Part shown: positions 128 through 55,600 of the stretch, one piece after another
How the letters are laid out: each line of letters starts with the position of its first letter
How positions within the stretch are numbered: the stretch's first letter is position 1
DNA from: a virus
Length of the DNA stretch: 55,987 nt
Virus record (IMG/VR): IMGVR_UViG_3300023106_000004
Coordinates: 1 to 55,987 of that record
Strand: one strand, 5' to 3'
Position numbers and translations under genes: made by a program
Notes under the pieces: generated by a model
The model's database searches: none
The model's input: only the letters and a program-made list of their open reading frames with translations
What the model was told of the DNA's origin: nothing

Positions 128-1027
128 CAACCTGTGGGCACTGTTGCAAACGGCGCGACTTTAATTAATTGCATAACTAACGTTTATGATTTTAGAAATG
201 ATTCGTTAGCTTTTCTATTCGACATTACGGGTAAATATCAAGTATTAGAAATCAGTACGTTTGATTCAACTAAAATCAATTTGTCTAGCCCGATTGTCGG
301 ATTGTTTAGAAGTGCATATTTAATGCCATGCAGAATTGGCCGGGTATCCGGTTCAATGGCTAAACAATTTTCTGGTTATTCGGGTAATGTTAAAGTGCAG
401 TTTTTTGTAGAAGATACTTTAGCTATTACAGGTGCTGAACCTACACAGTATCTCAGTAATGATATTTATTTTGAAGCTGGATTATTTGAAAACGGTTCTA
501 CTGAAACTGAAATTGAACAACGTAATGACATTATAGATTTTAATTTAGGCGTTAGCGAAAGTCGCACACCTTGGTTACATGCTAAACATGGTAGACAGCA
601 TAATAGCCAAATGCGTAACGCACAAGAAATTAGAACCTACAAAGAGTTCTTATATCGTCGTGCGGGTAAATCTAAAGTTTTTTGGATGCCTACATTTTTA
701 AACGATCTACGTTTACAAAATACCGGAAACATTGTTTCAACTATCGTTACTTATCGTGATTCGTATTTAGAGTATACGCAAAATCGTGTTCATATTGCTA
801 TTGAAGCTGGCGGGGTTTGGTATCCTAGAATTATTTCCGCACCTACGCCGACTAGTGCGGATACAATGCAATTCACTATCGATAGCCCTTTGAACGTTGA
901 CGCTTCTACAGTTACACGTATAAGCTATTTAGGTTTATATCGCTTAGATTCAGATTCAATTGATTTAAATTATGGAAGTAGTTTATTGACTGAAGCATCA
1001 GTTAGAATTAAAGAATTATTGCCATGA
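2..1027 (+). CDS. minor tail protein, 3' part of the gene that starts at 55724 and crosses the assembly junction (387 aa in total); position of lambda gpM/L or GTA g12
   Basis: Frame of 55724..55987 continues without a stop into the frame of track ORF 89..1027 (55860 is divisible by 3). The gene lies directly downstream of the tape measure. The track start at 89 is a TTG artefact. Confidence 0.6.
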   Translation, partial: RTKARQTLQYQIPLKPATDADVFNTGYGALRKKWAIPLWIEAQPVGTVANGATLINCITNVYDFRNDSLAFLFDITGKYQVLEISTFDSTKINLSSPIVGLFRSAYLMPCRIGRVSGSMAKQFSGYSGNVKVQFFVEDTLAITGAEPTQYLSNDIYFEAGLFENGSTETEIEQRNDIIDFNLGVSESRTPWLHAKHGRQHNSQMRNAQEIRTYKEFLYRRAGKSKVFWMPTFLNDLRLQNTGNIVSTIVTYRDSYLEYTQNRVHIAIEAGGVWYPRIISAPTPTSADTMQFTIDSPLNVDASTVTRISYLGLYRLDSDSIDLNYGSSLLTEASVRIKELLP

Positions 1028-1800
1028 TTATTAAAGAACTGTATTTATTTTCTGATGGCGTAAGCACTTATTATTTTACTAGTTCAGATACTGAAGAAGT
1101 TTATTTAGGTAATACTTATATTCCGATTGCTTTAGGTAGAACAAAAAACCAAGTAAAAAACGAACTATCTAAAGCAAATATTGAAGTTAGTTTTAGTATT
1201 GATAATGAATTTGCACGCGGATATTTAAAATTGGTAGAAGCTATTTTAACGCTTACTGTATTCTCTAAAGTTGACGCTGAAACACCTTTAGTAGAATTTA
1301 AAGGTAGACTAGTTTCGATCAAGCCTGAAGAAACTAAATTAAAGCTTGTATTTGAAACTGTTTTTACGTCATTGCGTAGGCCGGGTTTACGGCGTGCGTA
1401 TCAACGCAATTGCCCACATGTGTTATATGGACGCGGTTGCAATCTAGACAAAGATGATTTTGCTGTTGACGCTGTAGCAACGGCTGTAACTACTACAGGA
1501 ATTGTAGTTCCTATTGCCGCATCGGAACCAGACGGCGTTTATAGTGGTGGCATGGTCCTAGCGCCGGGCGGATTTTTGCGCTTCATTACCGCACATGTGG
1601 GCAGTAATCTAACCCTTATTCGCCCTATACAATCGCTTACCGATACGATTTTAGATGAAGGCTCGGAAGAAATAACTATATACCCCGGCTGCGATAGAAC
1701 TAGGGATGTTTGCGTAAATCGATTTGATAACTTAGAAAATAACGGTTCTACGCCATTCATTCCAATTAGAAATATTTTTAACGGTTCGTCATTTACGTAA
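1024..1800 (+). CDS. tail tip/hub protein, DUF2163 / BR0599-like
   Basis: ATGA overlap with the upstream gene. C-terminal YPGCDRTRDVCVNRFDNLENNGSTPFIP resembles the C..t...C..F.N..nFgG.P.iP signature of the BR0599 / GTA g13 family. Synteny after the tape measure supports the call. Confidence 0.6.
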   Translation: MIIKELYLFSDGVSTYYFTSSDTEEVYLGNTYIPIALGRTKNQVKNELSKANIEVSFSIDNEFARGYLKLVEAILTLTVFSKVDAETPLVEFKGRLVSIKPEETKLKLVFETVFTSLRRPGLRRAYQRNCPHVLYGRGCNLDKDDFAVDAVATAVTTTGIVVPIAASEPDGVYSGGMVLAPGGFLRFITAHVGSNLTLIRPIQSLTDTILDEGSEEITIYPGCDRTRDVCVNRFDNLENNGSTPFIPIRNIFNGSSFT

Positions 1801-1804
1801 TATT

Positions 1805-2214: not shown

Positions 2215-5200
2215 GAAAAAACAAACAGTAGGCTATCGCTACTTTTTGGGACTACATTTTATCGGTTGTCATGGTCCTATTGATAGCGCATTTGAATTTA
2301 TTGCTGACGATAAAATTGCATGGTCTGGTGTAAGCACCGGTGGACCTATTGACGTTGACGCTAAGAACCTTTTTGGTGGTGAAGATAAAGAAGGTGGTGT
2401 TTCCGGCCGTATTGATTTTGAACAAGGTTTGCCGACACAAGGACAAAACGATTATTTAGTTTCTAAGTTATCGCCTAGTTTAGTACCATATTTTAGAGGC
2501 TTGGCCGGTTTTGTTTTCCGTCAAACTTATATCGGTACACAAACATATATCAAGAAGTTCGCTTTTCGTTTATCGCGTATTCATGTACGTGAAAATGGTA
2601 TTGAACAATGGTATGATGAAAAAGCCGAAATTAGTGCATCGCCGCAAACTATAGAAGAAATTAATGCTCAATTAGACGAAGATTTAGGAACTATATCCGA
2701 AGGGTGGCGATATAAACAGGCTATTTTTTCAGATAACGCGGATTATTCAGACCCCGAATACGATGATTCCAGCTGGCCTATTGGTCAAATGCCGTTCGGC
2801 AATGAAAATCATTCTGCAAATTTAGATATTTACGGCTTTCCGACAAATCCTAATACATTTTGGGATGTTGATTCTAAAATTTGGATTAGAAAAACATTTG
2901 AATTAAGCGAAGTAGCTGACATTCTAATTAAAACTTTCCATGACAATTTTGCAACTTATTGGATTAATGGTACTTTAGTTCAAGCGCCATCGGGTGAATA
3001 TGATGAAGAAGGGTATCAAGAATTTATTATACCTAGAGAAGTATTAAGTTTAGGTACTAATCAAATTACAATATTGGCTGCTGATAGGGCTGATGTAGTG
3101 CCAGTTTTAGATCGTTCATATATTGCTACAAGAGCAACTATGGAGGATAGGGGGTATCAAAAGGATATGAACCCTGCCCACATTATTCGGGAGTGTTTAA
3201 CTAATCCTGATTGGGGTATGGGCTATACAGACGCTGATATTGACGATACAGCATTTACTAAAGCTGCTGATACATTATATGCCGAAAAAATGGGCATATC
3301 GCTATTGTGGAATCAGCAAACAGAAATTGAAGATTTTATTAAGTTAATCATTCGTCATATTGATGCTGTATTGTTTGTTGATAGACATACGGGTAAATTC
3401 AATTTAAAGCTTGTTCGTGCTGATTATATTGTCGATGATTTAATTATTTTAAACGAATCTAATATTGAAAAGTTAGACGATTTTACGCGCCCACAATTTG
3501 GCGAATTAACTAATCAAGTAACTGTTAAATATTGGGACGCTGTTAATAATATTGATGCAACAACCAGTATTCAAGATATTGCATTAGCGCAAATGCAAGG
3601 TGTTACGATTAGCGTAACTAATGAATACCCCGGTTTTACTAATGGCAATATTGCCGCTAGAGTCGCACAGCGCGACATGAAAACGCTTAGTTCAGCTATT
3701 GCTAGTTGTACGCTTTATTGTAATCGCGATGCATCGGTATTGAATATTGGAGATACTTTTAAATTATCGTGGACTGATTTTAATTTAAATGAGCTAGTAA
3801 TGCGGATTAGCGGTATTGATTATGGTGATGGAAAAAGCAATCAAGTTCGTATCCAATGCACAGAAGATATTTACGGACTGCCTGCTACGGCTCTAATAAA
3901 TAAAGAGCCTATTGAATGGGAAGACCCAAATTCTAGGCCAATGCCCGCTACAAATAGGCTTGTGTATGAGGTTCCTTATTTAGAAGCCATACAGCAATAT
4001 AGCCAAGCCGAAATCGATGCATTATTAACTGTTGATCCTAATATCGGATACGCAGGTGCTACTGCTGGAAAGCCTAAATCTAGCTATTTAAATGCAAATA
4101 TGTATGTGGATTCTGGCGCTGGTTATCAGAATGAAGCTACTGTTGATTTTTGCCCTATTGCTAAGTTACTTGCTGATATTGATAAAATGGCAACGGCTTT
4201 TGATATTGACAGTGTTGTAGATATTGCAAATGCTGTTGATGGGTCATGGTTTCAAATTGACAATGAAATCATGGTTAAGGTTAGCTATGTTGCGCCAACA
4301 TTGACAGTTAAGCGGGGTGCGCTCGATACGGTGCCCGAAATTCATAGTGCAAATGCAACATTGTATTTTTGGGATAATTACGCAAGTAATGACGATAATC
4401 AATATTTAGCTGGTGAATCGTTAAATATTAAGTTGGCAACTGTTACCGGACTTGGTGAATTGGCATTAGTAGCCGCACCTACTGACACACTAGATATTGT
4501 GGGCAGAATGGCTAGACCTTATCCGCCTGGAAACTTTAAAATTAACGATGAATATTTTCCACCTAGTGGTGGAAGTTCGTTAAATATTTCATGGGCACAT
4601 AGAAGCCGAAAATTGCAAACAGGCGGTATATATTTAGGCTTTACTGATGGTTCGATTGGTCCTGAAACTGGCACTACATATAACGTAAAAATTTACGATA
4701 ATACCGACGAAACTTTACTTTATCAAAACTTAGGTTTAGTTGGCGATTCAGTTTTTCCAATAGTTATTTCTACTAACGAAATTAGAATTGAATTGGAAAG
4801 CCAAAGGGATTCTTTAAATAGTTATCAAAAACAAGTTCATATTTTAGATTTAGGTACATCAGGCGTAGGATACAACTCTAGAGGTTTAGAGGTTGGCGGT
4901 GGTGCTGCTAGATGGGCTGTAGAAGTTGGCGGGTTTATTTATGCCATTAAGGATGCAGGTTTATTAAAACAAAATTTAACTACATTAGTAACTGTAGCGT
5001 CTGATGCTATTAGCAATAACTTAATGGGGATGGTTACGGACGGGACTAACCTATTTACCGTAGATATTGGTAACCCTGGCGGAAGTATCCCCGGAAAGTT
5101 AAGAAAATACGCACCTGATTTGTTAACACATACTGATGTGAATTTTCCAATGTTAGGCGATGGGTTCGGCGTGACATTTGTAGCTGGTTCCGTTTGGGTT

Positions 5201-6307: not shown

Positions 6308-7023
6308 TGTTATTAAATCCTTACCGATTTGGGCCGGGCATTGATGTGGATTTTGCAAAAGTTAAATTACTTTTGCATATGGAAGGTGCAAATAATGCCA
6401 CCAGTTCTACTGACAGTAGTAGTTCGCCAAAAACATTAACGTTTAATGGTAATGCAAAATTAAGCACTGCTCAAAAGCCATTTGGTGCCAGTTCTCTTTA
6501 TATAGATGGCGGTGCAACTAGCTACGTTACTATTGCCGACACTGCTGATTTAGAAATGGGTTCCGGTGACTATACGTTATCACTGTGGGCATACTTCATA
6601 GATGGTTCGCCGGGTGGCGTATTTATGAAAGGTGTTTACACTGGCGGGCCATGGTCCGAAGGTTTTGGAATGCGGTTTCTCGGTAGCTACATGAGGTTTT
6701 ATTACAATACAACTAATAGTAATGCAGGTGAAAAATATAATGATACTGACACAATTTCATTTACTACAGGAACTTGGAACCATTTTGAAATGTGTGTATC
6801 TGGTGGAATAGGATACTGTTTCGTTAACGGTACTTTAATAAGTTTCTTGACCGGGGTTGGTGCTATTACTGACTCTACAGCACCTGTAATAATAGGTAGA
6901 TTCCCGTTTAGTTCCGTAGATCAAGTTATGAATGGATATTTAAAAGATATTAGGTTGATCAAAGGTCAGGCGTTACATACTACTAGTTTTACGCCGCCTA
7001 CTGGACCTTACCCGGACTCTTAA
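6307..7023 (+). CDS. LamG / concanavalin-A-like lectin domain protein (tail accessory)
   Basis: LLLHMEG...FNGNAKLS...GSGDYTLSLWAYF...GYLKDIRLIKGQAL matches the Laminin_G_3 pattern; TAATG coupling to the upstream gene. Confidence 0.65.
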   Translation: MLLNPYRFGPGIDVDFAKVKLLLHMEGANNATSSTDSSSSPKTLTFNGNAKLSTAQKPFGASSLYIDGGATSYVTIADTADLEMGSGDYTLSLWAYFIDGSPGGVFMKGVYTGGPWSEGFGMRFLGSYMRFYYNTTNSNAGEKYNDTDTISFTTGTWNHFEMCVSGGIGYCFVNGTLISFLTGVGAITDSTAPVIIGRFPFSSVDQVMNGYLKDIRLIKGQALHTTSFTPPTGPYPDS

Positions 7024-9116
7024 TCAAATAGATTAGCCGTAACTGGTTTCTTATGAAAGCCTATATCAAATAACATTGATTGGGCTTTTTCTACGTAATA
7101 ACTATAGTTAATATCATCCGGGAACGTATCGGGCATATCCATAATAGGTTTAGCGCCATCGCTATCCCCTACTTTGTTCCCATTTGACACGTAGTTGATT
7201 TGCCCACAGGTGTCTAGAGCGTAATACCAGCGAACCTCTTTACCCAGGTACACCCCGTCTTTATGGCCCCCGCCAGCGACCGATTTGACGGCTACAAATC
7301 GATTTATGTTCGTGCAGCTTCTAATCGATTCTTCAATCGGTTTTTTGCTTATCAAAAAGTCTTTAACGGCTTCAATACAAACGGTAGTAACCGGGTTTTT
7401 GTGGAATCGGAAAATGGCTAATTCGGGATCATCCCACGGATTTTTATATGCGCCGATAGCTTTAGCTTTAACAATACCGTCTTTATCTGGTGTTTTAATA
7501 GCTATGTAGTTATTAACGTCCTTGCTGTAAACGGCTGAATACTTGGTGTTTTCAGTTTTGAATCCTGTATGTTCTTCCCATGCCTTAATAATCTCTGCTT
7601 TACGCGCCTTCAAGATTTTAGGATATTTAGTGACAATACCGTCAGTGTTTGCTGAAATAACGGGAATGTTATTCAATTCAAACATTTCAATAAGCATAAG
7701 CAATAATAACTGCCCGCTTAAGGTTACTTGAATCATCAAATCAGGCGCATAAATTGCGGACCAAATAGAACCAAGTTTACCAAATGAACCGTTAATAACA
7801 ATCTTCAGAGAATCGCTAATAACTTTCCACATCAAAGCGCCAGCTTTATCGCCTTCTTTTTTGCACTTGGCTGCATTGCGTTTGGCTGTTACGCGCTGTT
7901 CTACAATGCCGTCATAAACTTCTAAAAATGCTTCAGTAAGATGCTTTGGAAATAGCTTCAGAATTAGAATGATTCGCGGATAATATGATTCTACATCATC
8001 GTCGTCAATTTCCGTTTCATCATCGGCATAATGCGCAATAGTCTTTTCGCAACTATGAATACCGCCCATGCCCATTTTATAAAGAGCATTACCAACGGCT
8101 ACTTTTAAAACCCATCGGCCTTTATCTTCTGAATCGTCTTTATCGTCTTTAACCAGTTCGCCCAAACCTTCAGGCCAAAGTGGTGCACCCGAATCAGACG
8201 TTACGAATTTAGCCGCTTTGATATCTTCATAAACTTGCTTGAGATACGGGGTCTGAAACTCAATAAATGGCGGCGGTTTATACTGAAAAGTAGTACCGGG
8301 CGGAATATCAGGCCGTTTTACTTCTTTACCTGTAAGACGTTCAATCTCTTTCTTTAATACAGTTTCCGCAATTTGCGCATCAGATTTAGAGCGTAAATCT
8401 ACACCATACTTTTCAGTAAGGTTATAACGCAACTGCATTTGTTCCGATAATTCATCTAGAATTAATTCCGTAGCGGGAATATCGGAACCTAGACAATAAT
8501 TCTTTACGTCTTGCGATTCTTCAAACGTGAGTTCTTTGTTATGGTCAAACGGCAAATCTTGAATACGCTTACCCATTAACCGCGCTGCATATTTCTTTAG
8601 TGAACCTTGCAACGGGCAAACTTCAATCAAATCAATATGATCGATATTCGGTAACTTTAAATTGAATTCTTTACACGCCTGGAAGGGCGTTAATCCCATA
8701 TGAATATCTTTTTGCGGGATGATTTGATTTGAATACGTTTTCAAGCGTTCGGCATTGTAGCCGCGCAATGAAAGCATCAGCATTAATTCATCATATTTTT
8801 TGCTGTTGAATCCGATTAACTGAAAATTGAATATGATCCAATTCAGCAAATCTAAATTCATGCCGCCAATTGGCGTTATTTCTTCAGCCCAATATTTGCC
8901 GAGTTCCTTGCACTTGAATCCAATAAGAAAGTAATTCTTAAAGCATTCAATATCCCATATCATTTTATAGCCGCGTGCACCGGCATCTATTAATTCATCA
9001 AATGTAAAATAATCGATTGGAATTTGACTACGTTTTACAGCAATTGCATCAACCCTTTGTTTAGGCTTCTTAGATACTGCATTGCCGTTTTCATCAGCGA
9101 AAAACTTAATGGTCAT
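7020..9116 (-). CDS. family-B DNA polymerase with 3'-5' exonuclease domain
   Basis: ExoI WDIECF, ExoII NSKKYDELM, Pol motif A DVESYYPRII (DxxSLYPS-like), motif B KIVINGSFGKLG (KxxxNSxYG-like), motif C SANTDGI (DTDS-like). Confidence 0.85.
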   Translation of the reverse strand: MTIKFFADENGNAVSKKPKQRVDAIAVKRSQIPIDYFTFDELIDAGARGYKMIWDIECFKNYFLIGFKCKELGKYWAEEITPIGGMNLDLLNWIIFNFQLIGFNSKKYDELMLMLSLRGYNAERLKTYSNQIIPQKDIHMGLTPFQACKEFNLKLPNIDHIDLIEVCPLQGSLKKYAARLMGKRIQDLPFDHNKELTFEESQDVKNYCLGSDIPATELILDELSEQMQLRYNLTEKYGVDLRSKSDAQIAETVLKKEIERLTGKEVKRPDIPPGTTFQYKPPPFIEFQTPYLKQVYEDIKAAKFVTSDSGAPLWPEGLGELVKDDKDDSEDKGRWVLKVAVGNALYKMGMGGIHSCEKTIAHYADDETEIDDDDVESYYPRIILILKLFPKHLTEAFLEVYDGIVEQRVTAKRNAAKCKKEGDKAGALMWKVISDSLKIVINGSFGKLGSIWSAIYAPDLMIQVTLSGQLLLLMLIEMFELNNIPVISANTDGIVTKYPKILKARKAEIIKAWEEHTGFKTENTKYSAVYSKDVNNYIAIKTPDKDGIVKAKAIGAYKNPWDDPELAIFRFHKNPVTTVCIEAVKDFLISKKPIEESIRSCTNINRFVAVKSVAGGGHKDGVYLGKEVRWYYALDTCGQINYVSNGNKVGDSDGAKPIMDMPDTFPDDINYSYYVEKAQSMLFDIGFHKKPVTANLFD

Positions 9117-10129
9117 TAAACGCTCATTCCCATAATTCCGCCGCGCACCTTATCGCCAAAGAATAAAGTTAAATGCCTGTCATTCACTTCAAAGTGTACA
9201 CTGTGGGCATATGGGCGAATCAGTTTCAAATAATTCAAATTGAATGCTAAACCCGGTTTGATACCTTCAATATCATACGTTGTTGCATTTTCCAATTTTA
9301 CACCATTTGACATTTTACCGTCAAGAAAATAAATTTTATTGTCAGTTGTAAACGGTGCTACGTTTTCTAACGCTTCATAAAATCCTGCCGGTAACGGCCA
9401 CGGATTAGAAGCTACGTCTAAAATTAGTTCGTATTTAGGGTAACCGTCAACAAACAATTGCGACTTAATAAAACTACCATCTTCAAAGTAGAACGTTGCA
9501 CTGTTCGCACTAAAACCAAAAGACTTTAGCGGTTTGTCTGATTTAACAATTGCATTAGCGGATGCCTTTGGTAATAGGATATTTGGCGGTAAATCGATTC
9601 CGTGCCACGCTTCAATAATAACGTGTCCATTGGTAGCTACTGAGGTATTGGCCTGAAGCAACACGCTGCATTTAAAAGGTCTGTCGGCCTTGTCATCAGC
9701 AAGGGGCAGGCAAGCCGCTAGCGCGGTTTTTAGAGCATCGGTAAGGGTAGCAACAGGCGGGTCCGGTTCGATGCCTGGAATGTCGGAAAAGGGCACGCAT
9801 GGGACCAATGCGCGGAACTTGCCCGACTTGATAGACAAGCGCCCGCTATCCAGTTCGGTAATTGAAATTGCTTCTTTGCACTTTGACAGTGCTGCAATTA
9901 ACGTATTGGTGTGCGGACAAACGTTTAGTGTTTCGTCAACATAGTGGCCTGCTGCTAAACCGCCATCAAAGCCCGTTACCGTACCGCCTGCAATGCGACA
10001 ATGCATTTGCATCGGTGTTCCGTCTGAATGCTGTGCTACTGAAATAAACTTCAATGCTTCTAATAAGCTGCACCCCGGTGTAGCTTTTTCAGCGGCAGGT
10101 TTACGGGCGCGGGGTTTAGCTGTTGCCAT
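9116..10129 (-). CDS. DNA polymerase sliding clamp, bacterial beta (DnaN)-like
   Basis: LLEALKFISVAQ...; LSIKSGKFRALVPCVPFSDIP resembles the DnaN l.v.sG.s.f.l..l.a.dFP pattern; about 337 aa; translationally coupled to the polymerase gene. Confidence 0.6.
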   Translation of the reverse strand: MATAKPRARKPAAEKATPGCSLLEALKFISVAQHSDGTPMQMHCRIAGGTVTGFDGGLAAGHYVDETLNVCPHTNTLIAALSKCKEAISITELDSGRLSIKSGKFRALVPCVPFSDIPGIEPDPPVATLTDALKTALAACLPLADDKADRPFKCSVLLQANTSVATNGHVIIEAWHGIDLPPNILLPKASANAIVKSDKPLKSFGFSANSATFYFEDGSFIKSQLFVDGYPKYELILDVASNPWPLPAGFYEALENVAPFTTDNKIYFLDGKMSNGVKLENATTYDIEGIKPGLAFNLNYLKLIRPYAHSVHFEVNDRHLTLFFGDKVRGGIMGMSV

Positions 10130-10307: not shown

Positions 10308-10603
10308 TTGTTATCATCCGATTGTTTATCCATTTCAACTAATAAACGTTGCAAGTAATTAGCCATATCCAAAGCTTCCTCCAACGCATGATTAATCCAG
10401 TATCTCGAATCGCCTAAATTTTCATACAATGTGGTGTTGTATTTCTTAATGCCCACAGTAGACCGCGATTTAAGCTTTTCGCAAACCATATCTACAATTG
10501 GGTCTGATTTTAAACTAGCATCAAATGCTTTTAATCCACAATTACACGCGAATTTTTGGTTCATACCGCCGCCGCATTTAATACAATAAATAGTAGTTAG
10601 CAT
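10304..10603 (-). CDS. hypothetical zinc-ribbon protein with MazG-like helical C-terminus
   Basis: N-terminal CIKCGG...CNCG; C-terminal W.NHALEEALDMANYL resembles the EExxD helix of all-alpha NTP pyrophosphatases (weak). Confidence 0.5.
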   Translation of the reverse strand: MLTTIYCIKCGGGMNQKFACNCGLKAFDASLKSDPIVDMVCEKLKSRSTVGIKKYNTTLYENLGDSRYWINHALEEALDMANYLQRLLVEMDKQSDDNK

Positions 10604-10851: not shown

Positions 10852-12516
10852 TTAAAACTCCCAATTTATAACTTCTGGATAGCGTAAATTGGCATGCACC
10901 AACATCGCCTTAGGTTGTCGCAATTCATTTGTGCGACTCAAAAACTCATTAACCGTTTTTGGTGGTTCGGTTGCAGCGTGACGTTTCCACCATTCGCGGG
11001 CGTTGTGTCCTGGCCGTCCGGTGTGTTCAAAGCATAGAAACATATTAATAGTTCTAATGCCGAATGGGTAAATAGCTTTCACTGTGGGCGGGCTAATAAT
11101 TCCTGCTGCTTTTTGTTTACCTTCATGCCGTTGATAAATAACCGGGCGTTTAATTGGTACAGTTTCAAAAACAGGGTTTTCATCTTCTTTCATCGGTGCA
11201 TTATTAAATGCAGTAGCCGACAATTTAGTTTCAAAACTGAATTCTTCAGCGCAACCACAGCAAAATCTAACTGACGCATGGTTATATTCATCACAGCCTA
11301 AAACCCATTCTTTAGGGTCTTTGCCTTTATTAACTAGCAGTTTCTCGGCAGAGCAAATTTTAATTGGTGGCGGTTCGCCTGTTTTTTCACCCGGTTTGCG
11401 CGGCAATACAGGATCATCGATAGGACCATTGCGTCCGATATTGCCCACAAAATCCAACACCCTGCAATTGTTTTTGCCTGGACTAACCCGCGTACCGCGT
11501 CCGTATTTCTGAACGTGTTTGCCTGGGCTGCATGTGGGCTGAAAGTCTCCAATTAAATCAATACGTGGATTGTCGTAACCAGTGGTGAGCATATTAGCGC
11601 CGACAATGCACCAATATTCATCATTATCAAATGCTTCTAAACGTTTGCGGTTTGTCTCAGAATCCAATTTAGAATGCACAAAAGTTACTGACGCGCCAAA
11701 CGAATCAAGCATATTTGCAATATGTTCGGCGTTCTTTACACCGGCTGCAAATATCATGCATTTCTGCCTATCGTATCCAATCTCTAATAACTCTTTGCAA
11801 GCGTTATAGGTAATTTCATCTGTATCAACCAATGCTTCAGCCTGTTTATTATTGAAGTCTCCACCAATAATAGACAATTGCGAAACGCCGTTAATAACGG
11901 TTTTAGTGGGCTTACCAACTAGCGGGCTCAAGTAGCCTTCAGCAATCAAGCGTTTAAACCATTCGTGAGTAGTAATATCAAAACAAATATCGCTAAACAA
12001 ACCACCATCGGTAAGCTTGCCCATTTTCAAACGGTAAGGTGTGGCGGTGAATCCAATAACTTTAAGATATGGATTAATTTTAGTCAGTGCTGCAATAACC
12101 TTCAGGTATTGTGAATCTTCATCGGACCCTAATAGGTGCGATTCATCAATTAGAATCAAATCCCTATGGCCGAATGCTTCAGGGTTTTTAGCAACAGACT
12201 GCACGCCACCAAAGATAATAGGCATCATCGTATCGCGTTGACCCAATCCGGCAGAATGAATGCCAATAGGTGCGGTAGGCCAAAAGGTTTGCATTTTCTG
12301 CGCGTTTTGCAGAATTAGTTTCCAAACGTGAGTAAGCATCAATACCCGCTGATTCGGGTAGAACCTGAATACGTCGCGCAGAAAATCGGCAATAACAATT
12401 GATTTACCGGAACCTGTGGGCATACACACCAACGGGTTGCCCTTACCGCCTTTTTCGTAATAGTCGAAAATGGCGTTCTTTGCATCAGTTTGGAAATAAT
12501 GCGGGGTGATTATCAT
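10852..12516 (-). CDS. SF2 DEAD/DEAH-box DNA helicase
   Basis: Walker A MPTGSGKS, motif II LIDESH, motif III TATP, motif VI QKYGRGTR; Cys-rich C-terminal extension. Confidence 0.85.
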   Translation of the reverse strand: MIITPHYFQTDAKNAIFDYYEKGGKGNPLVCMPTGSGKSIVIADFLRDVFRFYPNQRVLMLTHVWKLILQNAQKMQTFWPTAPIGIHSAGLGQRDTMMPIIFGGVQSVAKNPEAFGHRDLILIDESHLLGSDEDSQYLKVIAALTKINPYLKVIGFTATPYRLKMGKLTDGGLFSDICFDITTHEWFKRLIAEGYLSPLVGKPTKTVINGVSQLSIIGGDFNNKQAEALVDTDEITYNACKELLEIGYDRQKCMIFAAGVKNAEHIANMLDSFGASVTFVHSKLDSETNRKRLEAFDNDEYWCIVGANMLTTGYDNPRIDLIGDFQPTCSPGKHVQKYGRGTRVSPGKNNCRVLDFVGNIGRNGPIDDPVLPRKPGEKTGEPPPIKICSAEKLLVNKGKDPKEWVLGCDEYNHASVRFCCGCAEEFSFETKLSATAFNNAPMKEDENPVFETVPIKRPVIYQRHEGKQKAAGIISPPTVKAIYPFGIRTINMFLCFEHTGRPGHNAREWWKRHAATEPPKTVNEFLSRTNELRQPKAMLVHANLRYPEVINWEF

Positions 12517-13604
12517 TTAAAGTCTAAACCCGATTCAATTTCATATTCTGTATCCTGTACTACTTTAGTAGTATTTTTAGGCTTTGTAATACTTTGCTGA
12601 GTGCCCACAGTAGCCGTTATATCTAGCCATTGCTCACAACCCAATCTTGCAAAATCTCGCGGTATGATGCCGTTATGTACTGAACAAAAGAATTCAGCAT
12701 TATCAACAGCGGAACAGTTAACGCAACTACGGCAATTTTTAACGGCAGGTTTTCCATGGTGGCAAACATCCTTGAAATCGCATAAACTTTTGCATTGGAA
12801 AAACGTAGGATTTTCGCTAATCTTAGCTGGTGGTTCCTGGCTGAAGATAATGGAATGCGCTTTGACTTCCATTTGTTCCGCTAAATTGAAATCCAGTTTA
12901 GCAACTTCAATATAAAGATCATCGTCGTTTTTATTAGCACAAATATACAATACATGCTGAATATCATAATCTGCCCCATAGATCGAATTTTGAATGTAAT
13001 GGGCAGGTTTGGCTTTAGCCAAACCTTTAGCTTCTAGGCTGTTGAAACCTGCGCCAGTGCCGCTAGTCTTTGATTCTAGAATGGCAAAGCCTGCAATGCC
13101 GTATGCACTAGGGAAAGCTACAATTCCATCTAGCGAACCGCCCAAATGGCCGGAACACTTATTCTTAATGCGCAATTGTGGATGCGTGCCGTCTGGTTTG
13201 GTTTGGCTTTCGTCGTGTGTCCAAACGGTAAAGCCCAATCCGCGCAACCATTCAGAATGTCGCTTTTCTTCTAGATGGCCGCGATTGAATAGGCGCATTT
13301 GGCGACCGTCTTTTTTACCTTGTGCTGCCCATCGGAAGCCATACCACAATGCGCGCTTGCATTCATCGCCAATTTTAGACGCGCCTAGATGCCACCTGAA
13401 GCCATCGTTATAAATAGTGGCGGTGTGTGCCTCAATCTCGCGCCTGACACGTTCAGAAACAATTGATAAAGGCGTGTCATTTAAACTAACCGGATTTGCG
13501 TCGTCCGATTTTGTCGTTTTGTCGAGCGTATCGCTCACGTTGTCGGGTTGCATTCTTTTCTTTACGCCTTTTAAATTGGATGTAGTTATTACTACTGTGG
13601 GCAC
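12513..13604 (-). CDS. PD-(D/E)XK exonuclease, Cas4/RecB-like with Fe-S cysteines
   Basis: D...ILESK (D/ExK) core; one N-terminal Cys (DECKRALWY) and a C-terminal Cys cluster (CKSLCDFKDVC...CRSCVNC). The start is uncertain: it overlaps the upstream ORF by 68-119 nt. Confidence 0.7.
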   Translation of the reverse strand: MPTVVITTSNLKGVKKRMQPDNVSDTLDKTTKSDDANPVSLNDTPLSIVSERVRREIEAHTATIYNDGFRWHLGASKIGDECKRALWYGFRWAAQGKKDGRQMRLFNRGHLEEKRHSEWLRGLGFTVWTHDESQTKPDGTHPQLRIKNKCSGHLGGSLDGIVAFPSAYGIAGFAILESKTSGTGAGFNSLEAKGLAKAKPAHYIQNSIYGADYDIQHVLYICANKNDDDLYIEVAKLDFNLAEQMEVKAHSIIFSQEPPAKISENPTFFQCKSLCDFKDVCHHGKPAVKNCRSCVNCSAVDNAEFFCSVHNGIIPRDFARLGCEQWLDITATVGTQQSITKPKNTTKVVQDTEYEIESGLDFK

Positions 13605-14867: not shown

Positions 14868-14900
14868 TTAAAAATGCCCACAGATAACCGCCTGTGTGGC
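14868..14900 (-). terminator. hairpin built from an imperfect inverted pair of the CTGTGGGCA word, followed by a T tract on the minus strand
   Basis: GCCCACAG (14876..14883) pairs with CTGTGTGGC (14892..14900, one bulge); AAAAA at 14870..14874 gives UUUUU on the minus-strand transcript. Confidence 0.45.
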
Positions 14901-41367: not shown

Positions 41368-41412
41368 AAATATTTTGTGCAACTGCCCACAATCGGTTAT
41401 ATACTCGCGCAC

Positions 41413-43975: not shown

Positions 43976-44024
43976 GGCCCTATAAAAGCTTGCATCACTG
44001 TGGGCATTTATAGGGCCTTATTTT
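43976..44024 (+). terminator. 11-bp perfect stem-loop plus T tract after the capsid gene; the loop carries CTGTGGGCA
   Basis: GGCCCTATAAA (43976..43986) pairs with TTTATAGGGCC (44007..44017); the 20-nt loop ends with the motif (43998..44006); followed by TTATTTT. Confidence 0.6.
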
Positions 44025-44036: not shown

Positions 44037-44321
44037 ATGGCTAATGAAGAACTAACCTATTTTAACGTTAAGAATAAAAGTATTCGCCTTGTCCATATCG
44101 GCGGTGTTTCTATTCCACCTGAAAAAGTGGTTGCGGTATTGGATGATGAAAAGGGTATTAATCGTATTGACGTCGAAGGTTCGGAATATCTGGAAGAAAC
44201 CGACGAAGAGGTTAGCGATATGCCCACAGTAGAAGCTGAAAAGCCGAAAGCTACTAAGAAGGCCGCTAAAACCGAAACCGCTACTAAGACGGCTACTGGT
44301 GCAGGTTGGAATTCTAAGTAA
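44037..44321 (+). CDS. hypothetical acidic protein with Lys/Ala/Thr-rich tail (94 aa)
   Basis: GGAG RBS; track ORF. Confidence 0.55.
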   Translation: MANEELTYFNVKNKSIRLVHIGGVSIPPEKVVAVLDDEKGINRIDVEGSEYLEETDEEVSDMPTVEAEKPKATKKAAKTETATKTATGAGWNSK

Positions 44322-45353: not shown

Positions 45354-45677
45354 ATGGCTACATATTCTGAGTTGGCGGCTGTCGCTGCTGATAGAACATC
45401 GCAAACCGAAGCTTTACGGGTTCGGATTCAGGTAGCTTCAGTATTAGCATGTGAAGCTATTAGACAAGAGGTTGTAACTACACCTAACCATGCTGCGCGG
45501 GTAGCATGGGCAGTTAACGTAATGAATAGCCCCGGTGCGTGGCAAGATCGCGTACTGTGGGCAGTATTGGCGCAAAACTCTACTGCTACCACTGCACAAA
45601 TTTTAGCTGCTGATGATGCAACCGTGTTAGCTAAAGTTTTATTAGCTGTAAACCTGTTAGCTGGTGGCATTGCATAA
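45354..45677 (+). CDS. hypothetical structural-module protein (107 aa)
   Basis: Track ORF. Confidence 0.55.
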   Translation: MATYSELAAVAADRTSQTEALRVRIQVASVLACEAIRQEVVTTPNHAARVAWAVNVMNSPGAWQDRVLWAVLAQNSTATTAQILAADDATVLAKVLLAVNLLAGGIA

Positions 45678-48803: not shown

Positions 48804-49180
48804 TGGCTCGATTTGATAGACAAATCAAGACCGCGCTACGGTTGATCCAAAAGAACGGGCAAGCTGTAGCATGGGTTAAAACGGTGGATGCGATTCCAGA
48901 TGCGGATATGCCATGGTTACCTGTGGGCACAACGAACACGAATTTTGCACCGTACATTTGTTTCTTGCCATTAGATTTACAGGGTAAAGAGTTTTTGCAT
49001 GCGTTAGGGGTTACCGATGCATTTACAGGTACATATTACGGTTTAATGGGTAATGTACCTTTTGAACCGTTGGTTACTGACGTTGTTACTAGGGATGGCG
49101 TTAAATTGGATATTGCAAGTATTGATTTGCTTTCTCCAAACGGCCAAAAGATTTTATACACAATCATTTTTAATGGGTGA
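48803..49180 (+). CDS. head-closure / head-tail joining protein (tentative)
   Basis: Size and position; TAATG coupling. Confidence 0.4.
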   Translation: MARFDRQIKTALRLIQKNGQAVAWVKTVDAIPDADMPWLPVGTTNTNFAPYICFLPLDLQGKEFLHALGVTDAFTGTYYGLMGNVPFEPLVTDVVTRDGVKLDIASIDLLSPNGQKILYTIIFNG

Positions 49181-49438: not shown

Positions 49439-49884
49439 TGATAACGTCATATTCAATCGCTAGGAATGAGATATTCGGGCAATTGAATATCGTAAAACCG
49501 GCTTTGGCAACGCTGTTAGGCTATGCTCCGAAAATTATTTATCAAGGTGTTGAATCTAGCGATAAAATGCCCACAGATGGGCTTTGGATTCGCGCATCTA
49601 TGGTCACTGTTGACGAGAGCCAAGCAACATTACGTGATGATAACGGGCGACGTTATAACACTGATGGTATATTTTTTGCACAAATTTTTATTCCTAAAGT
49701 GCCTGTTGAAATGTATGACAAAGGTGTAAAAACGGCCGAAATAATCAAAAATGCTTATCGGGGTAAACAAACCGAAAGCTGTATATGGTTCAATCGGGTG
49801 CGAATTCAAGATAACATACCGTCCGAATCGGCTTGGTTCCGGCTTAATGTGGTTGCAGAATATCAATACGACGAAATAGGATAA
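49438..49884 (+). CDS. tail terminator-like protein (DUF4128-like)
   Basis: Pattern ...KIIYQGVE...DGLWIRASMV...GIFFAQIFIP...AWFRLNVVAEYQY; lies directly upstream of the major tail gene. Confidence 0.5.
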   Translation: MITSYSIARNEIFGQLNIVKPALATLLGYAPKIIYQGVESSDKMPTDGLWIRASMVTVDESQATLRDDNGRRYNTDGIFFAQIFIPKVPVEMYDKGVKTAEIIKNAYRGKQTESCIWFNRVRIQDNIPSESAWFRLNVVAEYQYDEIG

Positions 49885-49894: not shown

Positions 49895-51451
49895 ATGGTT
49901 TGCGCAATTAATAAAATCGATTCAAACATTACCGGTTTAGCTTTTGCTGAAGAGGTTTGTTTGAAACAATTACCTGCTACGGTGCCAGATGGTTTTGAAC
50001 CCACATGGTACGGGTTAGAGCCTAATAGTTATTCTGATTTAGGTGGTGAAATCTCTACGGTTGCACGCGCACCTATTGATCCGTCACGCCAAAATAAGAA
50101 GGGTACTATTACCGACTTGGATGCATCGGGCGGTTTCAATACCGACTTTACGCAATCCAATATGACTCGTTTATTGCAAGGTTTCTTCTTTGCAGATGCG
50201 CGTCAACCATCTAGCACGCAACCTTTAAACGGTACGCAAATTCCTGTAACTGGTGTTGTTGGTTCGTCTAAGACGTATTCGGCTGCATCCGGTTTGGCCG
50301 TCTTTGCAGTGTCTAATTTGATCGAAGCCACAGGCTTCAATCAAGCATCTAACAACGGTTTAAAGACTGTTGCAACCTCTGCCGCAGGTGCTATTACAGT
50401 TGCCGAAGTTCTGGTTGATGAAGCAAGCCCGCCAGCTACCGCACGTTTAGACCGCGTAGGCTTTCAGTTTGCATCGGCCGATATTAACATTGCGGTTACT
50501 GCCGGTATTCCATCGCTGACGGCTACGGCTGCAACGTTTAATACTAATGCAGATTTGTTTCCTGGCAAGTGGATTTTCTTAGGTGACGATACTGTAGGTA
50601 ATCGTTTTGCAAATAACGTTGGTTATGCGCGCATCAAATCGATTGCAGCTAAGTCTATCACGTTTGACCAAACGACTTGGACGCCAGTTAACGAAACGGG
50701 CACAGGTAAGACTATTCGTATTTATGTGGGCACTTCCATTAAAAACGAATTGCTACCATCGCTGATTAAAAAGCGTAGCTATAATATTGAACGTCAATTA
50801 GGTTTAGGCGCGTCCGCTACTCAAGCTGAGTATTTGGAAGGTGCAGTTGCTAATGAATTCACGCTGAATATTCCACAAGCTGACAAGCTGAATGCCGATC
50901 TTTCGTTTATTGCTAGTGGTAATACGCAACGTTCGGGCGAAAGTGGCGATTTGATTAAAGCTGGTACGCGAGTTGCTGCTCCTGGTGAAGATGCGTTCAA
51001 TACGTCATCTAATATCTATCGCATGAAGCTGTCTGTTGTTGATCCTACATCCTCTAATCCTACGTCTTTATTCGGTTACGCAACTGAAGCAAATGTTTCG
51101 ATTAATAATGGTGTGACTCCAGATAAAGCAATTGGTGTATTAGGCGGATTCGACGTTAGCTTAGGTAACTTTGAAGTTGGCGGTTCGGTTACTGCTTATT
51201 TCACTACTGTTGCTGCCGTTAAAGCTGTTCGTAATAACGCTGACGTAGGTTTACATATCATTGCAGCTTCTAAGAATGCAGGTTTCATCTTTGACATTCC
51301 ATTATTGGGCTTAGGTGGTGGTCGTGTGACGGTTGAAAAAGATGCGCCTGTCATGTTGCCATTGGAAACCGCCGGTGCACAAAATGCTAACGGTTATACG
51401 ATGCTTTATGACAACTTCCCATATCTGCCGAATATTGCTATGCCGGTCTAA
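49895..51451 (+). CDS. major tail (tube) protein, 518 aa
   Basis: Synteny (after the terminator-like gene, before the chaperones and tape measure); strong RBS and a strong downstream terminator imply high expression. Confidence 0.6.
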   Translation: MVCAINKIDSNITGLAFAEEVCLKQLPATVPDGFEPTWYGLEPNSYSDLGGEISTVARAPIDPSRQNKKGTITDLDASGGFNTDFTQSNMTRLLQGFFFADARQPSSTQPLNGTQIPVTGVVGSSKTYSAASGLAVFAVSNLIEATGFNQASNNGLKTVATSAAGAITVAEVLVDEASPPATARLDRVGFQFASADINIAVTAGIPSLTATAATFNTNADLFPGKWIFLGDDTVGNRFANNVGYARIKSIAAKSITFDQTTWTPVNETGTGKTIRIYVGTSIKNELLPSLIKKRSYNIERQLGLGASATQAEYLEGAVANEFTLNIPQADKLNADLSFIASGNTQRSGESGDLIKAGTRVAAPGEDAFNTSSNIYRMKLSVVDPTSSNPTSLFGYATEANVSINNGVTPDKAIGVLGGFDVSLGNFEVGGSVTAYFTTVAAVKAVRNNADVGLHIIAASKNAGFIFDIPLLGLGGGRVTVEKDAPVMLPLETAGAQNANGYTMLYDNFPYLPNIAMPV

Positions 51452-51951: not shown

Positions 51952-52302
51952 TTGGCGTATTTGCTTGAACATGGGCCAAACGAGCAAAATATAGCTAGGC
52001 AAGCTCTGCAAATGGGTCAACCATTACCAGACTTCTTAGTTAATGCGCCAAAACTACAATTAGGCTTGCAAGTATTTTTGCAAGCCTTTTTTGATTTAGA
52101 TAGCGAACGGTCTAACGGTATGGGGGTTACAATGATCCCTTGGAGTAGTATAAAAAACTACGCACAGGCTTATGATTTTGATACTGAATTGACAGAAGAT
52201 TTAATTTATTTAGTTCGGCAAATGGATATTGCCCACACTAAGAGAATGGAAGAAAAATCAAAGGTTAACGATGGCGCGAACTCTAGGCGGATTGGCGGAT
52301 AG
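51952..52302 (+). CDS. second tail assembly chaperone-like protein
   Basis: PKLQLGLQVFLQAFFDLDSERSNGMGVTMIPWSSIKNYAQAY...DLIYLVRQMD resembles small chaperones found upstream of tape measures. TTG start, uncertain. Confidence 0.5.
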   Translation: MAYLLEHGPNEQNIARQALQMGQPLPDFLVNAPKLQLGLQVFLQAFFDLDSERSNGMGVTMIPWSSIKNYAQAYDFDTELTEDLIYLVRQMDIAHTKRMEEKSKVNDGANSRRIGG

Positions 52303-52690
52303 GTTAGATAAATTGGCGGAAGAATCGCCAAAAATGGGTTCTAATTTGGCCGTTAAAACTGCATTTATCGGCTTAAAAGTTTTGTATAACCGGACGCCTG
52401 TTGACACTTCACAGGCTGTTTCTAACTGGATAGTTTCTTTAGAGAAACCTGATTACAGGTTTATTGATCCATATGTACCGGGTTATTTAGGTTATACGGC
52501 TGCATCTAGTATTGCTGCCGCAATGATGCAAGCTGAAAACATTTTAGCTACTAAGAAGCCTGGACAAACAATTTATATTACCAATAACGCGCCGTATATT
52601 CGTGATTTAAATTCCGGTACGTCTAGACAAGACCCGGGCGGATTTGTGGAAGCATCGGCTTTAATTATGCGCAAGTCGCTAAAACATTAG
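52271..52690 (+). CDS. HK97 gp10-like tail-completion family protein (tentative)
   Basis: RTPVDTSQAVSNW resembles the vDTGnLrnS motif; ATG at 52271 inside track ORF 52229..52690; 32-nt overlap with the upstream gene. Confidence 0.45.
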   Translation: MARTLGGLADRLDKLAEESPKMGSNLAVKTAFIGLKVLYNRTPVDTSQAVSNWIVSLEKPDYRFIDPYVPGYLGYTAASSIAAAMMQAENILATKKPGQTIYITNNAPYIRDLNSGTSRQDPGGFVEASALIMRKSLKH

Positions 52691-52697
52691 GATTAAT

Positions 52698-55600
52698 ATG
52701 GCTGACGAAAGTGTAGTTATTGAGATTATCGACAAAGTAGATAATTCTATTGCGTCAAAAATTAAAGCAATCGCAACCGAAGCAAGGGCCGGGCAAACAT
52801 CATTAAATAGTCTTCAAGACGCTATTAATAAATTAGACGGTACAAAATTACAAAGCATTGTTAATAACTCCAGTTTGGCTAGTTCGGCATTAAATAAACT
52901 AGCTACCGCACAATCGCAATTAGCTACAGCACAAGCAAAGACTGCACAGGCCACGGCACAGGCTCAAGCGGCGCAGTCGCGCGCTACGGCTGCGGCAACT
53001 GCCGCCCAGGTGGCTACCGAAAAGCTTGCCGCCGCAGAGGCTAGGACGGCTGCTGCGCGTGATGCTGCCACGAAGTCAGCACTTAGCCTAGCTGCCGCCC
53101 AGGATCGCGCCACAGCCCGTGCTAAGGCCGCTGCCGATGCAGCTACCGCCGCCGCTGTGGCCGCTGCAAAAGGAACAAGCGCCATTGAAAAACAAGGTGT
53201 AGCGTTTAACAAATCTGGAATTTCTGTTAAACAATATAACGCTGCAATGCGTGGGGTTCCTGCGCAGATTACCGATATTGTTGTATCGTTACAAGGCGGA
53301 CAACGCCCTCTAACTGTTTTGCTGCAACAAGGCGGACAATTAAAAGATATGTTCGGCGGTGTATTGCCTGCATTGCGGGCGTTATCTGTGGGCTTACTGG
53401 CGCTGATTAATCCATTTACAGCCGTAGGTGCAGCAATCGCATTGTTTCTTTTTTCAATGTATAAAGTTGAAACGGCAATGCGAGAATTGAATGGTTTAGC
53501 TGCACAGTTTGCAGCAACCGGACGAAGTGATATCGATAAAAGTTTCATTGTTCAATTACGTAAAGAATTGATGCTTTTACCGGATGTGTCTAAAGCCGCC
53601 GCAAATGAAATTATTTCTTCTTTTGCTGAAGTTAGAAACGTTAGCTCTACTACGTTAAAAGCTGCCGCTGGTGTAGTTTCTGACTTAGCAACCGCATTGG
53701 GTACAGATACCCCTAAAGCTGCTAAAACTTTAGCTGATGCTTTAAAAGACCCTGTTAAGGGTGCTATTGATCTAGATGAAAAGTTAGGTTTCTTAACTGA
53801 AACTGATTTTAAAACGATCAAAAGTTTGCAGGATTTAGGTAAAACTGCCGAAGCTCAGAAAATCATTATTGATAGGTTAAGTGGCGCAATTGGTGGCTTA
53901 ACTAATGATTCGATGACGCCATTGCAAAAAGCGACAACTGATTTAGGTAATGCGTGGAATAAGTTTACTGGTGAAATGGCTAATACCGGCCCTATTGCCG
54001 CCGCAAATGCTTTCTTAGCTAAAACATTAGACGGTTTAACTTGGATTTTGGATAAGCTTTCAAGCTGGAAAATGCCCACATGGTTAGAAGGCATGTTCAA
54101 AGGTGGCTTGAATGGCATGGTGGCTAATGCGTTAGGCATGAATGACCAAAAAGGCGGTGCTACTGGCTCATGGGAACAGCCGCGTACACGCACGGCTGCA
54201 CAATTAAAGCCTACCAAATTAAAGACTGACGCGGCAGGTATTACGGGTAAAAAAGGTTCAGATAAAACTGAAGAAAACCGCGCTACAGCTTTAGCTAAAG
54301 TTAATCTGCAATTAGATAATCAGCTAAAAGTTATGCGTATGCTTGGCCCTGAAGCTGAGAAATATGAAATGTTTAGCCGTATTGAAGAAGGTTTAATTGG
54401 TCGCAAAATTAAATTAAATGCTGAAGAAACGCAAACAATTAAAGACAAAATTGCCGCTATTGTAAATGGCCGTGAACTGCAACAGGAAACTAACCGTATT
54501 TACGAAGAATCGGTTTCACCTTTACGTAATTATCAAACGTCTTTGCAAGCAATTAATAATTTGCTAGAGGCCGGTACGATTACACAAGCTGATGCCAATA
54601 AGCAAACTTTACTAGCTTTCCAAGCATATGAGAAAATTAACGCACCGTTAAATGAGTATCACAAGGCGCTAGACGATGAAGCTGCATTGCGTAAGTTTCA
54701 CGGTACTCAATTAGAGCAAGAAACCGCACAACAGAACATTATTAACGATTTGTTGACTAAAGGTATTGTTTTACGTAAAGACGAATTACAGACGCTGTTT
54801 GATCGTATCAAAGCCGGTCGTGAACTTAACGCAATTCACGCGGCAGAGAATCAATTAATTGCGGATTCTGTGGGCAAACGTCAAGCCGAAATTACACAGT
54901 TAACTGCAATTAAGAATTTAAAAGCTGATCCGAAAAGCGGATTTACTGAAGGCGATGCTTCTAAAGCTACTGCCGATATTCTACAATCGTCGGGATTTGA
55001 TACGTCAATGTTGCAAGTTGGTGCTGACGCACAAGTTGCAGTTTATCAAAGCATGTACGACAAGATTAAACAGTTGCGCGAAGCAAATTTGATTAATGCA
55101 CAAGATGCAGCAATGTTAGAGGCGCAAGTTAAGATTAAACAACTTGATACGCAGACGGCATTTGCACAAAGTTACTTTACCGGTTTAGCGCAATTATCAA
55201 ATTCCTCTAACAAAAAGTTAGCGACTATTGGTAAAGCTGCCGCAATCAGCAATGCTATTATTGACACGTACAAGGCCGCTACGGGCGCGTATGCGTCCCT
55301 AGCGTCTATCCCCTTTGTCGGACCTGCATTGGGTGCTGCTGCCGCTGCTGCCGCCATTGGCGCGGGTATGGCGAACGTGCAAGCCATTCGGTCACAGGGA
55401 TACAAAGAAGGCGGCTACACCGGCAATCTACCAAAGAGTGCTGTAGCTGGTTCGGTTCACGGTCAAGAGTATGTTATGGATGCTGCAACTACTTCGCGTA
55501 TCGGTGTTGACAATTTAGATGCAATGCGACGTAACGGTAGATTGCCCACAGGTGGCAACAATACTGCGCCTGCTGTAAATCAAAACAATAACAACATGAA

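Follow-up and report, generated by a model that had tools for sequence, protein, structure and literature searches.

The recognition sites of T7 gp4 (based on 5'-GTC-3') and of bacterial DnaG (trinucleotides) are strand-specific template words that set the starts of Okazaki fragments. They comprise 3–5 bases and are frequent enough by chance, and to our knowledge a genome-wide enrichment of such sites is neither needed nor seen. Here we describe the octamer TGTGGGCA, which resembles these sites in being strand-specific and which is strongly enriched in a viral DNA of 55,987 nucleotides, positions 1 to 55,987 of the IMG/VR record IMGVR_UViG_3300023106_000004 (this whole stretch is called the window in the following). 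We propose that the copies are dispersed priming sites, which are read by the primase-polymerase encoded by the phage itself at 17472–19820 on the plus strand, and consider this reading to be probable, at roughly 60%. Both the enzyme as the reader and priming as the function are inferred.

The closest described system is that of the Nitratiruptor phage NrS-1, whose primase-polymerase PrimPol is homologous to the enzyme of the window (AEP catalytic domain, helix-bundle domain HBD, and D5-type helicase). NrS-1 PrimPol primes de novo at 5'-TTTGGTTA-3', more efficiently at 5'-GTGG-3' or 5'-GTGA-3', whereby the HBD binds the site and synthesis starts from the first base 5' of it, slipping up to the fourth (PMC8718748). 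The dependence on a site of 8 nt was noted as unusual, and in the NrS-1 genome this site has been reported twice, at the putative origin (PMC7102993).

Similar to the NrS-1 site and to the GTG site of pRN1 ORF904, TGTGGGCA is a short asymmetric word with a GTG(G) core, of the kind that is read on the template. In contrast to NrS-1, where the site is located at the origin and no genome-wide enrichment was found, the genomes described here carry about 17–46 dispersed and evenly spaced copies each, the last bases of the word are GGCA, and a separate DNA polymerase is encoded. A further octamer with a phage primase-helicase of the D5/DUF3987 type as its reader is the TGTTCACC iteron of the P4 alpha protein, copies of which are clustered in ori and crr and bound as double-stranded DNA by the C-terminal domain. 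Unlike these origin-clustered iterons, the word of the window is dispersed through the genome.

Enrichment and spacing of the octamer in the window

The window is a metagenome-assembled contig (ENA sample ERZ27228489). An exact search of the whole window gives 43 copies of the core octamer TGTGGGCA, 23 on the plus and 20 on the minus strand, versus 1.65 expected and a maximum of 6 in dinucleotide-preserving shuffles. The nine-base form CTGTGGGCA is present 27 times on both strands together (19 on plus, 8 on minus), with an expectation of 0.23 and a maximum of 2 in the corresponding shuffles. An initial annotation, which had been made from the sequence alone, had listed 26 copies of the nine-base form and 16 more of the core; all of them were recovered at their places, and a single nine-base copy at 12414 (+) had been overlooked. 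Shuffling synonymous codons within genes, which leaves the proteins as well as the codon usage of each gene unchanged and includes the codons supplied by the TGTGGGCA sites themselves, results in 6.75 ± 1.7 copies with a maximum of 16, versus the 43 observed. When all words of 6 to 11 bases were scored against a second-order Markov model, TGTGGGCA was the sole strongly over-represented word of the window, and the remaining top words were sub-words or extensions of it.

The 43 copies use all six reading frames, 21 of them in sense and 19 in antisense orientation within genes and three between genes. They are read as V-G, W-A or C-G in sense and as P-T, A-H or C-P in antisense orientation, and this frame assignment agrees with the frames given earlier. 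As all frames are used and the copies exceed those in codon-shuffled genes, it is the DNA word that is under selection and not a peptide, as had already been argued in the initial annotation. Copies with one mismatch had been pointed out there as well and are indeed present at the places named; as a class, though, they are rarer than expected by chance (26 observed versus about 41 expected), and thus the exact octamer is sharply defined. Of the three intergenic copies, two are part of terminator-like hairpins. Among the 43 copies there is only one inverted pair (24461–24487), and one further copy is located within a hairpin at 43976–44017.

The copies are spaced evenly on each strand. The gaps have a coefficient of variation (CV) of 0.42 on the plus and 0.56 on the minus strand, compared to about 0.97 for simulated random placement, and the mean spacing per strand is 2.5–2.8 kb. 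An even spacing per strand is a general property, since the CV ranges from 0.24 to 0.69 in ten further phage genomes. Moreover, 35 of the 42 neighbouring pairs in the window have opposite orientations (21.4 expected, p < 1e-5). These alternating orientations follow from the regularity of the array on each strand: two independent regular arrays give a mean of 30.0 alternations in simulations, which accounts for most of the effect and leaves p = 0.025 for the window, and in five other genomes the alternation beyond this simulation is not significant. A coupling between the strands was considered as the cause and rejected as unneeded, as two independent regular arrays suffice. A bias towards the transcribed strand is essentially absent in 12 genomes, with 170 sense versus 139 antisense copies based on crude gene calls.

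The individual positions are conserved to a limited extent. Site positions are kept in 7 of 13 cases in the closest relative and in 6 of 12 in the next one, and in the distant relatives in 0 of 8 and 1 of 8. The density of sites is similar despite this turnover, which shows that selection is for a site every few kb and not for particular places.

The word follows the phage replication module

In uncultured relatives found via the portal protein, which share the gene order of the window and have a large terminase at least 66% identical to that of the window, TGTGGGCA is the top octamer (contigs L001, L002, L007, L008, L009, L014, L020, and L267). It is only weakly enriched, with 4 copies, in L015, and it is again the top word in L023, a contig with a related replication module that was reached via a different protein. 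The uncultured relatives carrying the word have a G+C content of 35–47%, and more distant portal relatives are devoid of it. A portal-based scan of 185,579 species genomes yielded only phage-sized contigs of metagenome-assembled genomes (MAGs) and no host DNA; a contig of a Pseudomonadota MAG contains the word, whereas contigs of Methylotenera and Burkholderiaceae MAGs do not. Among cultured phages, no relative of the portal, terminase, polymerase, or tail protein exceeds 57% identity.

The octamer itself was also used for searches. Neither the scan of viral contigs for two copies within 30 bases nor that of metagenome contigs for three copies at 200–310 bases gave host DNA among the matches listed, and in both scans these matches were overwhelmed by unrelated tandem repeats and minisatellites in which the octamer happens to be contained. 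Many unrelated minisatellites with periods of 11–160 bp and TGTGGGCA in each unit were present in JGI metagenome contigs (L146–L265). They are probably eukaryotic DNA, and because of them searches with spaced patterns for dispersed copies were defeated. Other words were noticed as well: in L013 (IMG/VR 3300020045_001912), a relative which has no TGTGGGCA, TTGGGGTA occurs 5 times versus 0.12 expected, a sample too small for a judgement, and L016 and L017 carry GGGCGCTA 6 and 5 times, respectively, all on one strand.

Cultured phages with an orthologous enzyme were found with the primase-polymerase of the window as query, at 35–55% identity. In none of their genomes is any word more over-represented than TGTGGGCA or its 7-base core, which is present on both strands. 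The octamer occurs 17 times in Pseudomonas phage Epa40 (Septimatrevirus; 0.32 expected), 18 times in Xanthomonas phage Pfeifenkraut (0.54) and in Burkholderia phage KL1 (Kilunavirus; 0.36), 16 times in Rhodobacter phage RcSpartan (Titanvirus; 0.25), and 24 times each in Sphingomonas phage Eidolon (0.39) and Acinetobacter phage D0 (Lokivirus; 0.66), whereas in Achromobacter phage Axy18 the 7-mer TGTGGGC is found 24 times (3.9 expected). The hosts of the cultured phages enriched in TGTGGGCA are alpha-, beta-, and gamma-proteobacteria.

The Queuovirinae have a primase-polymerase that is about 26–32% identical to that of the window, and here the enriched word is TGTGGT(T/C)A. CAjan of E. coli carries 40 copies of TGTGGTTA (2.3 expected) and 2 of TGTGGGCA, R7M of Alteromonas 25 of TGTGGTTA, 16 of TGTGGTCA and 1 of TGTGGGCA, PaMx25 of P. 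aeruginosa 11, 32 and 3, respectively, and CHI of V. parahaemolyticus 1, 32 and none. In the enzyme tree the phages with TGTGGGCA (GGCA) form one clade, to which CAjan and R7M are the sister clade, and the hosts are mixed within both the GGCA and the GTYA clade. Phages of the same host species, P. aeruginosa, use different words, TGTGGGCA in Epa40 and TGTGGTCA/TGTGGTTA in PaMx25. The word therefore belongs to the phage replication module, and it tracks the tree of the primase-polymerase and not the host. This is the direction of the fallback given in the initial annotation, i.e., a phage-private site or the binding site of a phage protein.

Two further words were noticed in the cultured phages. 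In CHI (Vibrio phage vB_VpaS_CHI) the near-palindrome GCCTGGC/GCCAGGC is present 37 times versus 2.7 expected and may be a target of restriction-modification or methylation. AAGGAGT, with about 0.1 copies expected, occurs 14 times in Epa40 and 10 times in KL1 and is probably a very uniform ribosome-binding site.

The primase-polymerase as candidate reader of the word

We propose that TGTGGGCA, preferably after A-N and not after G, is a strand-specific recognition site of the primase-polymerase/helicase. The enzyme would read the word on single-stranded template DNA and would start the primer just 5' of it, and the separate DNA polymerase of the phage together with its clamp would then extend this primer. 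As a site of eight bases occurs less than once per strand by chance in 56 kb, the genome would be under selection to keep copies. Each strand would retain a copy every 2–3 kb, at the scale of Okazaki fragments, while the individual positions could drift. Sites are in fact available at this scale on each template strand of the window (2.5–2.8 kb per strand).

The gene product of 17472–19820 has the AEP catalytic domain, the HBD, and the DUF3987 helicase, the latter with 28.2 bits in Pfam. Its residues 5–257 match a primase-helicase structure that was deposited under the name "DNA primase" (PDB 7OLA, E 9e-31) as well as N300, a fragment from the N-terminus of the NrS-1 primase (6A9W, E 3e-17). 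An NrS-1-type HBD is present at the same place in the enzymes of Epa40, KL1, RcSpartan, CAjan, and PaMx25 with 28–35 bits, which is above the Pfam cut-off.

The words themselves also resemble the NrS-1 site. TGTGGTTA of the sister clade shares 7 of 8 positions with TTTGGTTA and is also present at the origin of NrS-1, and GTGG is part of both enriched words (T-GTGG-GCA and TGTGGTYA). The NrS-1 genome contains four copies of TGTGGTTA, two of which flank the iteron cluster beside the primase gene; the sequence there is CTC-TGTGGTTA-CACTT-TTGGTTA-CACTT. This cluster, at 17190–17440 of the NrS-1 genome and just downstream of the primase gene, comprises eleven copies of GTTACACTT, which embed the published site TTTGGTTA and its variant TGTGGTTA. 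Furthermore, the bases preceding the word are poor in G. In the window clade G is found in 4%, 9%, 1%, and 4% of cases at positions -4, -3, -2, and -1, respectively, and in cultured phages in only 7–8% at -1/-2; position -2 favours A in all three groups compared. This G-poor stretch from -4 to -1 covers the same bases at which synthesis by NrS-1 PrimPol begins.

No genome-wide enrichment was seen in NrS-1 or in the Pseudoalteromonas phages C7 and H40/1, which all have a primase-polymerase but lack a separately annotated DNA polymerase gene. All enriched phages encode a polymerase and a clamp besides the primase-polymerase, which is consistent with a division of labour that would leave only priming to the primase-polymerase. 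C7 (MK387309), whose primase-polymerase is very divergent, shows a different and weaker enrichment, with 9 copies of AGGCGCTAA versus 0.66 expected and 15 copies of GGCGCTAA, dispersed on both strands.

Several points weigh against the primase-polymerase as the reader. The polymerase, the clamp, the SF2 helicase, the Cas4 nuclease, Sak4, and VRR-NUC are inherited en bloc with it, and for this reason co-variation alone cannot single it out. Its role in the enriched phages is proposed from homology. The Pfam HBD of NrS-1 reaches 21.2 bits on the protein of the window and thus stays under the cut-off of 27.9; orthologues that are 48–55% identical to it exceed this cut-off. Moreover, NrS-1 PrimPol is flexible and a minimal GTG is sufficient for it, so that the need for a full octamer is not explained. 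The favoured base at -1 depends on the lineage: it is C in the window clade, with the extended word TACTGTG..., and almost never C in the cultured phages, in which AT or AA precedes the core. Finally, the sites are equally frequent on both strands throughout the genome, whereas priming of the lagging strand only from a single origin predicts a switch in polarity, which is not seen; possible reasons are forks that move in both directions, or a use of the sites in restart or in multiple initiations.

A wider claim, to which we give even odds, is that tailed phages of a large, widely distributed group use a strand-specific "priming code" of eight bases, in which synthesis starts only at TGTGGGCA, or at TGTGGTYA in the Queuovirinae, and in which enzyme and word co-evolve. 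The group would comprise Septimatrevirus, Kilunavirus, Titanvirus, Lokivirus, the relatives of Xanthomonas, Sphingomonas, and Achromobacter, the window clade and, with the variant word, all Queuovirinae. An enzyme that starts only at the word would cause selection to retain a copy every 2–3 kb per strand, and the length of the site would let the phage replisome prime its own DNA and not that of the host.

Alternative explanations

Instead of the primase-polymerase, another protein of the same module could read the word, namely the SF2 helicase with the Cas4/RecB exonuclease, for which it would be a "private Chi" that is phage-encoded and stops the nuclease on phage DNA, or VRR-NUC as a site-specific nickase. 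The helicase/exonuclease pair, Sak4, and usually VRR-NUC are indeed carried by all word-bearing phages, and an attenuator for linear DNA with ends anywhere would likewise be orientation-specific, evenly spaced, and located on both strands; P1, for example, carries Chi in both directions, 14 on plus and 13 on minus in its first 50 kb. We regard this explanation as unlikely, as NrS-1, C7, and H40/1 own a set of helicase, RecB/Cas4, and SSB (a protein that binds single-stranded DNA) but have no enriched word. We also know of no phage helicase-nuclease of the SF2/Cas4 type that has a Chi. Furthermore, the words match sites that were defined for a primase-polymerase and not for a nuclease (PMC8718748). 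Considerably less probable is that the word is the target of a DNA modification encoded by the phage, or that it marks site-specific single-strand interruptions as in T5 and tf. The window encodes a small C5-methyltransferase-like protein at 19810–20475, Epa40 a C5 methylase, and KL1 a Vsr endonuclease, and the extended word TACTGTG... of the window clade resembles the nick consensus of phage tf, TACT/RTGMC. However, a modification target requires neither enrichment nor even spacing, and no methyltransferase is annotated in RcSpartan, D0, and Eidolon. Interruptions of the T5, phiKMV, and tf type lie on one strand only, whereas the sites of the window are distributed 23 to 20 over both strands, and the tf-like flank is lineage-specific, as cultured phages have AT or AA before the core.

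Two explanations refer to the host. The phages LLS, P1, and MD8 accumulate the Chi of their hosts (PMC12315714), and TGTGGGCA is similar to Chi in these phages as it is the most frequent octamer of the genome, occurs about once per 1.3–1.9 kb, is G-rich, and depends on orientation (PMC12315714), which is a resemblance of pattern only. A host Chi, read by RecBCD or AddAB and accumulated for protection or recombination, had been named as an alternative in the initial annotation. It was also our leading idea for a while, because of the Chi sites on both strands of P1 and because of two distant relatives, L018 (IMG/VR 3300047469_000407) and L022 (a prophage of Lelliottia wanjuensis, NZ_JASSOQ010000049.1). 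Both have a portal of about 29% identity and no TGTGGGCA. In L018 the top octamer is the E. coli Chi GCTGGTGG, with 13 copies versus 1.5 expected and 12 of 13 on one strand; in L022 it is a top octamer with 11 copies, 9 of which share one strand. Such a pattern resembles the classical accumulation of Chi by a temperate phage of enterobacteria. The idea was dropped once phages of many hosts turned out to share the word, and it is now very improbable. Chi depends on the enzyme of the host and differs from host to host, while our word stays constant across hosts and varies with the replication module of the phage; it is the same in phages of hosts that differ in their Chi sequence and in their end-processing enzymes. 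Chi is GCTGGCGC in Pseudomonas and GCTGGTGG in E. coli and enteric bacteria (PMC12315714). TGTGGGCA equals neither of them, the words of Epa40 and PaMx25 differ from each other and neither is GCTGGCGC, and CAjan carries TGTGGTTA and not GCTGGTGG.

The explanation favoured at the outset, a DNA-uptake signal of a naturally competent host, can practically be dismissed. In its density (about one copy per 1.3 kb), its occurrence on both strands, its regular spacing, and its occasional placement in terminator stems, the word resembles the uptake signal sequence (USS) of Haemophilus and the DNA uptake sequence (DUS) of Neisseria. The recruitment into terminator stems, which had been taken as a hallmark of such signals, comes down to two hairpins, and terminator-forming inverted pairs are not frequent, with one pair among the 43 copies. 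Unlike USS and DUS, which belong to a competent host lineage and its chromosome, the word goes with a lineage of phages whose hosts are unrelated: the same top octamer is found in phages of seven host genera, and two words are found within phages of P. aeruginosa. One host with two words and unrelated hosts with one word exclude a host uptake signal as well as a host Chi. In addition, the word matches no known USS or DUS. An integrase was not found among the genes of the window, and the approximately 120 portal relatives in public data are all on contigs of at most 56 kb, with no prophage among them. The window is therefore an uncultured lytic phage and its phage group is lytic, so that uptake sequences would not accumulate through transformation.

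Relation to previous work

Sequence-specific priming and the NrS-1 site are already known. What appears to be new is the evenly spaced, genome-wide enrichment of an 8-base word that is conserved over many phage genera and hosts and has a clade-specific variant. In searches for the octamers, on their own or combined with Chi, RecBCD, primase, or the genus names of the phages, we found no open-access paper or preprint that discusses them, an absence that is not proof, and the one incidental occurrence is in a table of ribosome-binding sites for KL1. If the priming sites proposed here are real, they would give an in vivo reason for the unusually long recognition sequence of NrS-1-type primase-polymerases, and in many phage genera the sequence would suffice to predict where discontinuous DNA synthesis starts; among them are candidates for therapy against Pseudomonas, Acinetobacter, Burkholderia, Achromobacter, and Stenotrophomonas-like hosts. 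In metagenomes, the octamer would be a simple marker of this replication module, and GGCA versus GTYA would be a natural system for the co-evolution of a DNA-reading domain with its genome-wide sites. Since an enriched and evenly spaced word of a phage need not be a host signal, such words are unfit for host prediction unless the phage lineage is controlled for.

Genes and sites of the window

The window encodes a large terminase, a portal, a major capsid protein, a tail tube, a tape-measure protein, lysis genes, and a complete replication module. Besides the primase-polymerase, the module contains on the minus strand the DNA polymerase at 7020–9116 (phrog_1252, E 1.6e-186), the clamp-like polymerase processivity factor at 9116–10129 (phrog_947), the SF2 helicase at 10852–12516 (Pfam ResIII and Helicase_C), the Cas4/RecB-family exonuclease at 12513–13604 (phrog_1990), the SSB at 14199–14855 (phrog_6015), and a Sak4-like annealing ATPase at 14933–15610 (phrog_124). 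A tRNA-Leu gene with the anticodon TAA is located within the module at 16029–16113 (-).

According to the exact search, the plus-strand copies of TGTGGGCA are located at 133–140, 1596–1603, 4498–4505, 6584–6591, 9202–9209, 12415–12422 (the core of the overlooked nine-base copy), 13596–13603, 15662–15669, 17992–17999, 22276–22283, 25509–25516, 25819–25826, 29156–29163, 31534–31541, 32776–32783, 36787–36794, 38897–38904, 40468–40475 (a position kept in 5 relatives), 43999–44006 (within the terminator-like hairpin after the major capsid gene), 45556–45563, 48922–48929, 50725–50732, and 54869–54876. On the minus strand they are found at 1411–1418, 3175–3182, 7201–7208, 10450–10457, 11442–11449, 12602–12609, 14875–14882 (intergenic), 17276–17283 (in the divergent region upstream of the primase-polymerase gene), 19268–19275, 24460–24467 (one arm of the terminator-like hairpin 24461–24487), 29966–29973, 32052–32059, 38372–38379, 39745–39752, 41384–41391, 44221–44228, 49568–49575, 52230–52237, 54073–54080, and 55543–55550.

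An island at 23223–24235 has a G+C content of 58% versus 35–42% in its flanks and contains overlapping long open reading frames (ORFs) on both strands, including one of 152 amino acids at 23757–24215. The octamer is absent from it, as had been noted before. The absence had been taken to fit a foreign origin of the island, but this argument has no force, as chance would place only about 0.8 copies in this 1 kb. The phage protein encoded at 21938–22663 (+) has a signal-peptide-like N-terminus and a C-terminus that resembles a PEP-CTERM sorting signal (VPEPSSW, a hydrophobic helix, and RKRK); its homologs are all found in related phage contigs, one of them with Pfam PF07589. The paralogous proteins of 25679–26149 and 32914–33576 have the motif "(Y/F)PFE(K/Q)L.VG.SF" in common, and the latter is DUF7303 (phrog_7597), which is found in all relatives of the window clade. 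In L023, the SF2 helicase gene at 1–1226 contains an intein with Pfam matches to Hom_end_hint and LAGLIDADG.

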